Positions 4,744-64,000 of a stretch of DNA of 64,000 bases are shown piece after piece. The translations under genes were made by a program, and so were the position numbers. Each line of letters starts with the position of its first letter. The stretch's first letter is position 1. Source of the stretch: Nitrosopumilaceae archaeon (lineage in GTDB: Archaea; Thermoproteota; Nitrososphaeria; Nitrososphaerales; Nitrosopumilaceae); assembly GCA_965207375.1 (NCBI GenBank), contig OZ242274.1, positions 1,184,001 to 1,248,000 on the forward strand, in the 5' to 3' direction. The notes beneath the pieces were generated by a model, which saw nothing but the letters and a program-made list of their open reading frames with translations, was not told where the DNA came from and made no database searches.

Positions 4744-4844
4744 GTAAGTGTTAACGTCACGTTTGAATTTTTATTCTATTTTTTGACGGCAAAGTAATTT
4801 CGTAGCTAAAATTATCATAATTTTAAAACAACGTTAACAGATAC
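4744..4844. mobile_element. IS66-type MITE (101 bp) with 8-bp target-site duplication
   Basis: Ends GTAAGTGTTAACGT and ACGTTAACAGATAC form an imperfect inverted repeat. AAAAAATG flanks both sides (4736-4743, 4845-4852). Confidence 0.8.
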
Positions 4845-60217: not shown

Positions 60218-60422
60218 CGATATTTGGATCTTTTTGGTATTGCTAGGTGTGAAAATTAGGGAAATTGGCTAATTACGAATCAACTCTATGGTAGGATCAA
60301 AGAGCTTTGGCATATCTTTGTATACCTTTTATCAAAATTATTTCAACCTTGATTTGGGAGACCTGAGTATGTACGTCCGTATTTATCAAATCCTTAATAG
60401 CAAATCTCAAAGCTATGGTGCA

Positions 60423-61925
60423 ATGGTACAAAAAACAAAACTGCTCATATTACCACTTGTTCTGACGCTGATATCAGTACCGTTAGCATTTGGACAAGAT
60501 ACATCAGATACCATGCAAGGTCTTGATGATGTAGAGTCTTATGTGATATCGCCACTAAAGCAATACAATGCAGGTGTACTAGCAGAACAAATTATCTGTG
60601 AAAATAACAAAACATTGATGCAGCGACCAAATTCAGAACCTGCATGTGTCTATGAGACATCTGTAGAAAAGCTAGAGATACGCGGATGGGTTGTACTGTA
60701 CACACAGGACACTGTTTCATTATCTCCGGAACGTGATACCTCGTATACAGTATCAGAATCATCGGATGTTACTTTTAGTGCACCGTGTCTTTTCTGTTCC
60801 ACCCTAGATCTGTCCAGTTTCCCAAAGATTGGTGAGATAGCTACTGCTACACTTCATGTACCTAGCAGTACGCATATCAGTATTCCAGAAGATTGGGGTA
60901 TGAATGTGTATTTTTATTCTACTGATCCTGATGCCGTAGAATTTCTAGATGTGGAACCGACAACAGTCATATCCAAAAACGATGGTTCTGTACAGGATAT
61001 CTATAGAATGCCATTTGTAACAGAAAGCAACAAACCTACAACATTCTCAATCCAGTTCAAGATTATAAAAACTGGTCAGTTTTCCATACACGGTGGAATT
61101 ACAGATAATGAATCAAATTTTGTTACTCTTTTGGTAACAGAAGATGGCACTGAGGAATTTGTTCCACAATATGCTCCTCCACCTGTTCTAACCGAACTGT
61201 ACGCCAAAGAAATCAAGGAATTGCGTGTCATAATTGACAAGAGAGGCGGCGTTGGACCTGAGATGATAAACGTTAGAGACAGTGAAATTCTGATGGATAT
61301 AATACGATTTGAGGGACTGTTAACTGAACAGGAAGCTGAAAAATATTTGTCATTTGTATTACTAAATACAGAGAGACTATACGGGGAAGAATCCCTTACA
61401 TGGCGTCAAGTAGAACAGATTCTCTTAACTGATGAATATCTTGCAGAATACATAGATCATAAAACACGTCAGGATAACCGACCACTACAGGTTCCTACAG
61501 TATACTATTCTGATTGGGGTGCAGACGGATGGAATGACGGCTATGACAGTACACTTGAGGACATTAGAAGATATCTAGCACAGGGCAACTATATGACGCA
61601 ATCCCAGATAGACCAATACATCAAGGATTATATCGCAGACGATTTCCTTGATGTCCAAAATTTTTCTTTTTCATTTTTGCCCAAGGCATATGCTGCAACT
61701 ACCATACATCTAAAGGGATGGATATTAGCAGATCCCTCATTTAGTGACAAGACCGATGACCGTATCAGTGGCATTGAAGTATGTGGGCAAAAAAAGATCC
61801 CAAATGGTTACATGACACTAAAAACCACGCGTAATATCCTTGCGTGTGATATTACTGATGAAAATGGTAAATTTGGTAAGTGTTTACGTCGTGAACACAT
61901 GATAACCACCCCTGCGCTGTACTAG
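60423..61925 (+). pseudogene. Secreted thaumarchaeal protein (SPLKQ..C domain), truncated by insertion at ~61875
   Basis: Signal peptide, ISPLKQYNAGV..IIC...PACV...LEIRGW motif. The last ~16 codons derive from MITE/IS110 sequence. Confidence 0.7.
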
Positions 61926-61929
61926 TGAT

Positions 61930-62040
61930 GAATCGACCCCTGATTAGGTATGGGCTACGCGCCCTTGGTCGTGAATGGGGCAATCCGAGCTGCTGTGTAA
62001 TTGGGCTACGCGCCCTGATAGATGTGTGCAGCTTCCGATC
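61930..62040 (+). ncRNA. Predicted bridge/seek RNA of the IS110 element
   Basis: Two stem-internal loop-hairpin units capped by identical GGGC-TACGC-GCCC hairpins; loop strands match the target and donor junction sequences. Transcript ends are unknown. Confidence 0.8.
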
Positions 62041-62074
62041 CGTCAAAACATCCGTAAGGAGGTGAAAAGAAAGG

Positions 62075-63166
62075 ATGAAAACATACATTGGAATAGACAT
62101 TGGAAAGAAAAAGTGTGACGTATGCGTCATAAATGGTACAGGACGAGTACTTGAGACCTGTCAGTATATGAACACGGTAGCAGATGCTAAAAAGTTTGCA
62201 GAAACCATGGCACGAAAATACACGGGAAATAAAAAAACATGCAGTGCTGCATGTGAAACTACAGGCAACATGTGGAATGTTACCTATGCTAAATTTGAGG
62301 CAGCAGGTATACCAATCAAGCTTGCAAATACGTACAAGATGGCCATAATTGCCAAGACTGGTAAAAAGACAGACAAGGTGGATGCACAAAAGATAGCACA
62401 GGTATTACGAATGGATATGATTCCAGAATGTTATGTACCAAAACCGGACATACGAGGAATACGTGCAATGATACGACAGCATATCAAGATAGTACATGAT
62501 AGGACACGAGTGATAAACAGAGTACGCAGTCTTTTAGACAGACATGATGTCTCAATTGATACAGTACAAGTATATGCAGTAAAGACAATGCAGTATCTAG
62601 AGTCTGTATCTCTTGATGAAATACATGATGAAATAATTCTGCAGCAATATGTCCGACAGATCAGACATCTGACCGAAGAGTTGACCAAAATGAATGATTA
62701 CATAGAACAAGAGGCAGCAAACAACGAGTATGCCAAACTATTGACAAGCATGACAGGGATGGGAACATATACTTCATTGTTGCTAGCAGTCGAAATTGCA
62801 GACATTTCAAGATTTGATAATCCAAAGAAACTTGTTGCATGGGCAGGTCTGTGTCCTACCATACACCAGTCAGGAGATCAAAAATATCTTGGAAGGATGA
62901 AGAAACTAGACACCAACAGTATAGTGAATTGGGCAATGTGCGAGGCAGCAAATGTGGCAGTAACACATGACCCTAGGATGAAATCAATATACGAATCTGC
63001 AAAAAGGCGACATGCAGACAAGCATGCACTTGCAGTTGTTGTAGTTGCAAACAAGATGATAACAATATCATGGCACATTCTGAACACAAAGACACCATAT
63101 TCGTCACACAATACAAGATTGTATCAGCGCAAGCTTGCTAAATTGGAAAAGGCACGTCAGAAATGA
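62075..63166 (+). CDS. IS110-family DEDD recombinase/transposase
   Basis: YIGIDIGK, ACETTG, KTDKVDA, AWAGLCP..HQSG. GGAGGTGA RBS upstream; intact 363 aa. Confidence 0.96.
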   Translation: MKTYIGIDIGKKKCDVCVINGTGRVLETCQYMNTVADAKKFAETMARKYTGNKKTCSAACETTGNMWNVTYAKFEAAGIPIKLANTYKMAIIAKTGKKTDKVDAQKIAQVLRMDMIPECYVPKPDIRGIRAMIRQHIKIVHDRTRVINRVRSLLDRHDVSIDTVQVYAVKTMQYLESVSLDEIHDEIILQQYVRQIRHLTEELTKMNDYIEQEAANNEYAKLLTSMTGMGTYTSLLLAVEIADISRFDNPKKLVAWAGLCPTIHQSGDQKYLGRMKKLDTNSIVNWAMCEAANVAVTHDPRMKSIYESAKRRHADKHALAVVVVANKMITISWHILNTKTPYSSHNTRLYQRKLAKLEKARQK

Positions 63167-64000
63167 TTTGTACCTGTCAAATCCGGTATTAAGCTTGCTA
63201 GCGTTAGCTATAAATGATATACTAAATAATTAGGCACGGAACGGAAACGCAATAGGGATACATCAAGGTACGCGCCGGGGTGGTTAACATAGATGTCTAA
63301 AATTACCATAAATTCAAAACAACGTTAACAGATACATCTGTTTTCATGTGTGGTATCGTGGAGCAATGCCGGACTAAATTATCTAGAAGAGATGATAAAA
63401 TACCTCTAGATGGGTAAAAACGATGTTAACCCTTACTAAAATTTTAGTCACAACAAGTACAAAGCGATTAAGAACCATTTTCAGGCCCCTAATCACAATT
63501 ACCTTTGAGTAATCGACTATCATAGTATGTAATGTAATAATTGTAATTAAAAGTTATAATATTTTCAGGCATAAAAAATACATAAAATAGGATTTGAACC
63601 CACGAAACCCTACGGTAATCAATTGATAGTCGATCTATTTTGACTAGGTTCACAAATCCATGCAATGTTGAATCTAAAGGCATGTAATTTATTTCCAAAA
63701 GATTTTTGATTCTGGATTGAAAAGTTTGCAAATAAGCTTGATCAAAGACCATTGACAATAGGCAAGTCATGGGGAAAGATTACAACATATGCTTCACCAG
63801 AAACTGATCTTGTAGCAAATCTAACTAATCATCAATAGTTTTTCACATGTTTTTAAAAATTTCACACATATTTTTACTTTTTAAAAATTTTCAAATACTA
63901 GACCATATTATAAAAAAATCATGATAATTGGCAAATTACAAAACAACCAAAAGGCAATCAAATTAGACGTTGAGCTTTATTGCATCAATTGCAACAAAAA

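Follow-up and report, generated by a model that had tools for sequence, protein, structure and literature searches.

An IS1111-type insertion sequence with a predicted guide RNA lodged in IS66-family transposon ends of an archaeon

Introduction

What brings an insertion sequence (IS) into the very end of another transposon, and is the choice of that place its own? The question is raised by an element at positions 61894-63295 of a 64,000-nucleotide (nt) stretch of DNA from a Nitrosopumilaceae archaeon (assembly GCA_965207375.1, contig OZ242274.1, positions 1,184,001 to 1,248,000), here called the window, in which it splits a short repeat bearing a terminal inverted repeat (TIR) of the IS66 type. 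A preliminary description, made from the letters of the window, took it for an IS110 element programmed by an RNA to insert into an IS66-type MITE (miniature inverted-repeat transposable element). Below we describe the anatomy of the element, the contexts of its copies, the conserved fold of its RNA and the covariation between guides and flanks, including one natural retargeting, and we consider it very probable that 61894-63295 is an autonomous 1402-bp RNA-programmed IS with IS1111-type ends that targets the TIRs of IS66-family elements and MITEs.

RNA guidance and natural reprogramming are already described in two papers (PMC11187229, PMC11208160). The phenomenon is established, and the locus opens no long-standing question. 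The behaviour is known from bacteria; what is new here is an archaeal member and the use of IS66-family ends as targets. Supplementary tables that may list archaeal orthologues aside (PMC11208160, PMC11187229), no paper on this archaeal element or on IS66 ends as targets of IS110/IS1111 elements was found in the literature. The earlier attribution to an archaeon agrees with the only small-subunit (SSU) rRNA in the assembly, on contig C1, which scored 1444.9 bits with the archaeal and 1086.2 bits with the bacterial model.

The element and its copies

Comparison of four copies with empty IS66 ends delimited the element (AACACATG...ACATAGATG), and comparison of the same copies and their flanks with the uninterrupted flanking repeat gave the termini at greater length (AACACATGATAACC...GGTTAACATAGATG). 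The empty site, as seen in an uninterrupted IS66 end A, reads GTAAGTGTTTACGTCG-TG-CCTAGATTTT. It has the core TG a single time, and an occupied site has it to the left and right of the element; the limits assume that this core stands at the right end, 61892-63293 being equivalent. Limits of 61896-63296 proposed before were thus off by two on the left and by one on the right, the AA being the element's and the T at 63296 the host's. The junction 12-mer formerly put forward as the target (GTCGTGAACTAA) has no occurrence in the 4.3-Mb assembly; the sequence actually targeted reads GTCG-TG-(C/T)CTAR and lies within an IS66-family TIR, 18 nt from the tip.

The element has 14 matches in the assembly, of which four are full-length; these four all stand on contig C1 at 98-100% identity and measure 1402 bp, with 0, 1, 22 and 27 nt differences from the window copy (copy 1) and an in-frame TAG in copy 3. 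Among the ends found in this genome, TG precedes 8 of 9 left ends and finishes all 5 right ends. Insertion at a specific site and in one orientation, through a short core that the target and the joined ends have in common and without further duplication (empty sites ..GTCG-TG-CCTAG..), is the pattern of the IS110 superfamily. The 363-aa open reading frame (ORF) of the element exceeds the curated Pfam cut-offs for DEDD_Tnp_IS110 (E 1.6e-27) and for Transposase_20 (E 4.7e-21), and its nearest solved relatives by phmmer against PDB are the transposases of ISCro4 (E 1.1e-15) and IS621 (E 5.1e-14). Its translation contains IGID (D8), E61, KTDKVDA (D100, D103) and HQSG (S266, G267), blocks that align with the ISCro4 transposase; judged by motif position rather than structural alignment, D8/E61/D100/D103/S266 would be equivalent to D11/E60/D102/D105/S241 of IS621 (PMC11208158).

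Transposons that carry the insertions

The hosts of these insertions belong to, or derive from, the IS66 family, as their DDE_Tnp_IS66 domain, TIRs and 8-bp target duplication indicate. One, here IS66A, is a 1528-bp IS with a single 449-aa ORF (PF03050 DDE_Tnp_IS66, E 6.4e-39; a zf-IS66 match of 26 bits lies below the 27.3 cut-off) that has no tnpA/tnpB partners in the ORF list, and which may be of the ISBst12-like type. End A is the end nearest the ORF start. IS66A is present in eight full-length copies, with a perfect 8-bp duplication at six of the seven uninterrupted ones. A second IS66-family IS measures 1495 bp (PF03050, E 1.4e-33), and the TIR pattern GTAnnnGTTnAC is common to both ISs and to two MITE families of ~101 bp and ~80 bp. 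The 101-bp family (43 BLAST matches in the genome, all on C1; TIR GTAAGTGTTAACGT / GTATCTGTTAACGT) is short, non-coding and multi-copy, with IS-related TIRs and a target duplication, as MITEs are. IS66 and MITE families occur only on C1: a transposable-element (TE) mask covers 1.84% of C1 and 0 bases of contigs C2-C4. As a separate observation, the host of copy 2 (C1 609987-612916) and the IS66A at C1 1526431-1527955 lack the 8-bp duplication, which hints at recombination between IS copies.

All four full copies of the element lie in IS66-derived elements, one in a 1528-bp IS66-type IS and three in mini-elements, and none in an unrelated context, in keeping with the preliminary description; for every host, paralogues without the insert exist and display the empty site. 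Copy 2 interrupts end A of an IS66A at 18 nt from the tip. Apart from the insert this IS66A is intact: once the insert is removed, 12 mismatches are counted in 1528 nt and the 449-aa ORF is retained. In three uninterrupted copies end A reads GTCGTG|CCTAGATTTT. Copy 1, in the window, has an IS66A-type tip of 18 nt on the left and the last 40 nt of a 101-bp-type MITE on the right. The host of copy 3 is a ~85-bp MITE whose TIR is of another type and which is split 18 nt from its tip; an uninterrupted 70-bp paralogue of this host reads ..GTACTTGTTTATCTCGTG|CCTGATGTTTCAG.. (TCGTG before the junction). Copy 4 lies ~31 nt from the tip, at an internal site of a ~80-bp MITE, and four ~80-bp paralogues share its 16-nt right-flank signature and read ..TTAATTTGTG|CCC.. 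or similar. Six 101-bp MITEs likewise read ..TTTCGTG|CCTAAAATTA internally, and the same site appears in loose contig ends of four public sequencing runs. Independently, a BLAST mask built with four reference TEs (E<=1e-4) picks out 4 of 14 junction flanks vs a 2% background, namely those to the right of copies 1 and 2 and those to the left of two left-end fragments.

The idea that MITEs are the target holds for three hosts and is too narrow, as the motif is shared with full-length IS66 ISs, among them the intact 1528-bp IS that holds copy 2. The MITE at 4744-4844 of the window is empty and mismatched, as described before, at both candidate sites (GTCACG-TT-TGAA and TTCG-TA-GCTAA). Half of the eight IS66A copies have the exact left target GTCGTG and one of these is occupied; none of the other four, with 1-2 substitutions, is. 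Natural variants of this target are GCCGTG, GTTGTG, GTCATG and GCCATG.

The element might instead have been captured once in an IS66-type element and then copied as a passenger by the IS66 transposase. Copies 1 and 2, with an identical 18-nt left flank and a single internal difference, would fit such a history. The four copies, however, sit in four different hosts and their right flanks differ directly after the core, no copy has an 8-bp duplication around host and passenger together, and the covariation of guides and flanks described below is not expected from it. We regard passenger copying as largely refuted and very improbable.

A conserved predicted two-loop RNA upstream of the gene

The non-coding region upstream of the gene, which bears the guides, is 181 nt long (61894-62074), and that downstream 129 nt (63167-63295). 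The upstream region contains GUCGUGAA, identical to the left junction, and a predicted RNA with one target-matching and one donor-matching loop (Table 1), the arrangement typical of the IS110 superfamily. We compared the window copy with 11 other 5' regions of the same family, from copy 4 and from relatives in seven other genomes. Across this 12-sequence alignment 95.8% of cells are paired vs 32.5-46.9% in slid controls, 13 of 28 pairs show compensatory changes on both sides, and 0 of 500 shuffles reach this level, figures that overstate independence because the sequences are related. The variable parts of the aligned RNAs are the loops.

On the donor side, the left-donor guide covaries with the right end in relatives, where ATAGGTG, ATGGATG and ATAGATG each match their own loop. 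For the right-donor guide the evidence is weaker than for the other guides, consisting of one relative (G079) in which a left end AATACA accompanies a guide AGUAU, a compensatory change at one pair.

Guides track the flanks

On the target side, the left-target guide of copy 4 differs by three substitutions, from GGUCGUG to UUUUGUG (positions 74, 75 and 77), and its left flank reads ..GATTTGTG vs ..CGTCGTG in the other copies, an apparent case of natural retargeting within one genome. In the four copies, the right-target guide makes 4-5 Watson-Crick pairs (5-6 with G-U) over six right-flank positions. The same holds across 10 lineages, with guides taken from alignment columns and 100 non-cognate pairings for each comparison. 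Over the five non-core left-flank bases, cognate guides matched 4.3 on average and non-cognate ones 1.4, with only 2 of the 100 non-cognate pairings reaching 4 or more; over six right-flank bases the means were 4.4 and 1.44, with 1 of 100 reaching 5 or more. The left comparison excludes G099, for which no left end could be located, and the right one excludes G063_b, whose contig stops there. A further locus, the second copy in G006, is without the first 8 nt of the left end (AACACATG), and there the left flank matches the guide at 7 of 7 scored positions and the right at 5 of 6.

That an RNA is programmed for the site next to the IS66-type TIR tip was the core of the preliminary description, and it is borne out by a guide equal to the left junction and by guides that follow the flanks. 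One could suppose that the protein recognizes the shape or sequence of the IS66 TIR and mainly chooses the target, the RNA matches being incidental; three insertions at the same 18-nt distance from a TIR tip would suit such recognition. Copy 4 and a fragment (L011), though, lie 31 nt from the tip at a different word, to which the guide change corresponds, and relatives with other guides sit in unrelated, guide-matching sequences, so we give this view hardly any credence.

The element's own predicted guide RNA thus explains the landing of all four copies in transposon ends. As we picture it, the element would encode a DEDD/serine recombinase and an upstream bridge (seek) RNA of ~120 nt with two internal loops, the first reading the target and the second the element's own joined ends (..ATAGA-TG-AACACA..). 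Recombination of a circular form with the target at the shared TG core would then give insertion in one orientation, 18 nt inside the promoter-proximal TIR of IS66-family elements and their miniature derivatives. From the sequence we infer the circular intermediate, expression of the RNA and a benefit of landing in transposons.

Points that weigh against guided insertion and the history of the window locus

Several observations weigh against this reading or its details. Folded singly, the RNA is no better than shuffles by minimum free energy (z-score -0.45), so that the structure rests on comparative data, and a scan of 61700-63500 against Rfam gave no match at E<=1. The right-donor guide, as read here, pairs with left-end positions 2-6 alone and leaves the core unpaired. 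On the right flank, the guide of one relative (G006_a) agrees at 0 of 6 positions, and that of the G041 copies at no more than 4 of 6. For copies 3 and 4 the hosts, short and diverged, escaped the BLAST mask and were assigned from paralogues and motifs. The long non-coding region downstream of the transposase that marks IS1111 elements is lacking here, the RNA being upstream.

The window host itself is also of mixed type, its left 18 nt resembling IS66A and its right 40 nt the 101-bp MITE. The last 6 nt of 61876-61893 are the left target GTCG and core TG, and contigs of two of the public runs (X1, X2) end at 61875, where the repeat starts. On the right, 63297-63335 corresponds to positions 63-101 of the 4744-4844 MITE at 92% identity, and many contigs diverge at 63336. 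The preliminary description was right on the adjoining TIR and the MITE family and erred in the boundaries: once excised, the host measures 58 bp (18 + 40) rather than ~59 bp if it ends at 63335, or 159 bp if the adjoining end-B fragment is included. No clean 8-bp duplication was found, either for the 58-bp version (TAAATTTG vs ATCTGTTT) or for the 159-bp version ending at 63436 (TAAATTTG vs TAAAATTT), and the interrupted 58-bp host thus lacks the duplication expected of a MITE. The locus may have been rearranged after insertion.

The flanks could accordingly be chimeric, if two element copies had recombined, or else a pair of sites resembling the target (one at the TIR tip, the other at ..TTCGTG|CCTAAAATT.. 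inside the 101-bp MITE), with loss of the intervening DNA. On the left, the 18 nt agree with IS66A end A at every base (GTTTACGTCGTG) and not with the left end of the 101-bp MITE (GTTAACGTCACG); on the right, the flank sets in precisely at the target-like site within the MITE. No other 58-bp copy of this structure was found, a strict search having given only six empty sites and none in such a context. Besides the missing target-site duplication at the window host, the IS66A of copy 2 has none (GAATCCTT vs AAAATAAC), vs 6 of 7 uninterrupted copies with one. Set against this, the right 56 nt of the 101-bp MITE resemble a degenerate mini-element, so a 58-bp ancestor is plausible. We think a chimeric origin unlikely; whether by simple insertion or as a chimera, the element stands at a guide-matched site.

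The insertion also touches a neighbouring 545-aa ORF. As its last 16 codons come from the TIR tip and the inserted element, its C-terminus was rewritten by mobile elements.

Table 1. Features of the element, its predicted RNA and its surroundings (positions of the window).
Feature	Position	Strand	Remarks
IS1111-type element, IS110 superfamily	61894-63295	+	four copies; empty-site comparison
Left extension, 7 nt, TGAACAC	61892-61898	+	core included; directly before left subterminal repeat
Left subterminal inverted repeat ATGATAACCACCCC	61899-61912	+	13/14 positions complementary to 63277-63290
Structured core of predicted bridge/seek RNA	61927-62044	+	basal stem around two hairpins, each with outer stem, internal loop and inner hairpin GGGCUACGCGCCC
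Target loop, 5' side UGAUUAGGUAU, right-target guide	61941-61951	+	AUUAGGUA pairs with top strand TG+CCTAAT
Target loop, 3' side UUGGUCGUGAAU, left-target guide	61965-61976	+	GUCGUG = left target and core; next AA = element's first 2 nt
Donor loop, 5' side UGUGUAAUU, right-donor guide	61994-62002	+	UGUGU pairs with ACACA of the left end
Donor loop, 3' side UGAUAGAUGUGU, left-donor guide	62016-62027	+	AUAGAUG = right end ATAGA and core TG
Transposase/recombinase gene, 363 aa	62075-63166	+	Pfam; phmmer against PDB
Conserved right non-coding block: CTAGCGTTAGCTATAAAT, ~15 nt, TAGGCACGGA	63198-63240	+	6/9 aligned right ends
Right subterminal inverted repeat GGGGTGGTTAACAT	63277-63290	+	read directly; kept in relatives
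Right extension, 3 nt, AGA, then core TG	core 63294-63295	+	after right subterminal repeat
IS66-type TIR tip GTAAGTGTTTACGTCGTG, left half of interrupted host	61876-61893	+	identical over 18 nt to IS66A end A
Right 40 nt of host mini-element, TIR tip ...AACGTTAACAGATAC at end	63296-63335	+	begins with right target TCTAA
Fragment of IS66-type end B, 101 nt, tip at 63436	63336-63436	-	abuts mini-element; 84% identity to positions 1-101 of 1528-bp IS
Uninterrupted 101-bp MITE	4744-4844	+	8-bp duplication AAAAAATG on both sides
545-aa ORF	60288-61925	+	no Pfam match

Subgroup and closest known systems

By its ends and guide order, with a GL-P----SG motif besides, the element is best classed within the IS110 superfamily as of IS1111 type, the position of its RNA being atypical; this replaces the plain IS110-type label given at first. 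IS1111 members, according to the parts of Siddiquee et al. (PMC11187229) on this group, have subterminal inverted repeats of about 11-13 bp, 7-bp left and 3-bp right extensions, the motif GL-P----S(T)G and seekRNAs in which the complement of the top strand comes first, and few have an upstream non-coding region. The element shows TGAACAC before its left subterminal repeat and AGA after the right one (Table 1), its right-target guide precedes its left-target guide, and G258-L259-x-P261-x4-S266-G267 corresponds to the motif as set out in section 6 of PMC11187229. Its 363-aa transposase falls just outside the 330-350 aa quoted in the same parts of that paper for IS1111 elements. ISEc11-type seekRNA elements, as far as those parts describe them, share with it the 7-nt and 3-nt extensions, the motif and natural reprogramming between close relatives (PMC11187229).

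With the IS621 bridge RNA, in the sections of PMC11208160 and PMC11208158 that deal with it, the predicted RNA shares the upstream position, target and donor internal loops, and loops that each read both strands around a shared 2-nt core; the recombinases are detectable homologues. The guide order is reversed, whereas in those IS621 loops the guide that pairs with the bottom strand is on the 5' side (Durrant et al., PMC11208160), the core is TG here vs CT, and the present element has subterminal repeats. An upstream RNA joined to IS1111-type ends and guide order helps to delimit which features of such systems are fixed and which are free, and compact recombinases of 363 aa that use a TG core join those already catalogued. 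For archaea, the locus also offers a clear case of bridge/seek-RNA targeting as it occurs in nature, with retargeting inside one genome.

The locus extends the known IS1111-type habit of landing in mobile elements to archaea and to IS66-family elements. IS4321 and IS5075 are reportedly IS1111-type elements that insert in the TIRs of the Tn21 family. Like the present element they have subterminal repeats and take a fixed position and orientation inside another transposon's terminal repeat; unlike it they are bacterial and use a Tn3-family TIR, whereas here the setting is archaeal, the targets are IS66-family TIRs and MITEs, and the RNA lies upstream of the transposase. In Coxiella burnetii, 20 of 21 IS1111 copies are in QMITE2, a MITE regarded as a hot spot in the relevant part of PMC5896051, so that there too copies of the IS1111 family are nearly all in one MITE family. 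That target, as described in the same part, is a GTAG palindrome of the repetitive extragenic palindromic (REP) kind within the MITE, whereas here it is a subterminal part of the TIR that is shared with autonomous IS66-type elements.

Relatives and the transposon-end habit

Among relatives, the results on a transposon-end habit are mixed and suggestive. G041 belongs to another genus; two copies there have flanks in common, which begin 16 nt ahead of the insert, run to ~1.26 kb beyond it and encode a 324-aa DDE_Tnp_1 transposase. Because the far end of this stretch carries the interrupted sequence inverted, the insert lies ~16 nt inside the TIR of that IS. In G063 the 35 nt ahead of the insert are the end of a repeat that has no fewer than 40 copies (39 others among the 40 matches listed and scored, out of 88 candidates, often at contig ends), and the first 26 nt of the right flank of G061 recur in nine further places. 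G006_b and G099 have one weak extra flank copy only, and no further flank copy was found for G079, whose right flank is single-copy. A search for inverted copies of the empty-site models within the loci gave none, even in G041 where the TIR exists, and is hence uninformative.

Landing in transposons could be a by-product and not a strategy, the guides matching an 11-nt word that is multi-copy through the repeats, such that opportunity and survivorship would account for the pattern. The count of sites inside and outside IS66 ends, proposed earlier as a check, goes partly this way: 3 of the 6 empty exact 11-nt sites lie outside TE ends, so sequence match alone may explain the placement, and of 48 relaxed 10-nt sites in this genome 37 lie outside the TE mask. 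The single-copy right flank of G079 points in the same direction. Yet the remaining 11 of the 48 relaxed sites, in a mask covering 0.92% of the assembly, amount to a 25-fold enrichment in TEs, and relatives with different guides are also found in repeats (the TIR of G041, and G063 and G061), which makes a pure by-product somewhat unlikely. Two other measures were too permissive, namely a wobble-tolerant target count (280 sites, 10 in TEs) and a loose TIR motif (background 15% of positions). Transposon ends may serve as a safe harbour for the element, as suggested before.

At the right end, the block at 63198-63240 resembles an archaeal TATA box facing the right tip and outward, and may be a putative promoter, which could read across the circle junction into the RNA and gene. 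The consensus of this block, common to 6 of 9 relatives, is CTAGCG.TAGCT(A/T)TAAA(T/G), 13-15 nt, then TAGGC(A/G)(C/T)GGA. A wider proposal, which we hold as possible if on balance doubtful, is that IS1111-like bridge recombinases of this archaeal family, as an entire clade marked by an upstream RNA, a reversed guide order and a TG core, keep their target loop programmed on the terminal repeats of resident DDE transposons and retarget by a few guide substitutions. They would be habitual hyperparasites that split the host's end from its transposase gene, with the TATA-like block firing across the circle junction for RNA and recombinase. The targets would then be IS66-type elements here, IS4/IS5-like DDE_Tnp_1 elements in G041 and the ends of high-copy repeats in G063 and G061.

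Remnants, contig joints and other contigs of the assembly

Two truncated copies, L009 (C1 555716) and L007 (C1 1740060), have lost the 51-52 nt between identical inner hairpins (GGGCTAYGCGCCC), a deletion that unites the target loop's 5' side with the donor loop's 3' side; the hybrid loop so formed is predicted to correspond to the right junction (right end - TG - right target). Another sample (run X4) has a contig with this deletion too, seen as a joint from 61950 to 62002. Among the assembled contigs of the four public runs, none joins the right end to the left end as a circle junction would, and none bridges the empty site from 61893 to 63296. In runs X1 and X2 a contig joint leads from 62014 to 63305, from the second inner hairpin to the right part of the MITE, skipping 1290 nt with a shorter side of 30 nt.

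Short, diverged left ends left over from related elements (CACATGATAACC...) occur at C1 620299, 733098 and 1997940, at +18 of IS66-type TIR tips, with junctions GTAAGTGTTAACGTCATG|AA, GTAAGGGTTAACATTGTG|AA and GTAAATGTTAACATCGTG|AA, which suggests older rounds of the same targeting.

Contigs C2-C4 (2.14 Mb) have a GC content of 36.7-36.9% vs 38.2% for C1, and stop-free frames of at least 150 codons cover 11-19% of their bases vs 78% of C1. They contain no SSU rRNA match and none of the transposon families of C1, and have a repeat of their own (GTACTTTATTACATCGTGAA...). Despite a low contamination figure they look unlike a prokaryotic chromosome and may be foreign to the archaeon.

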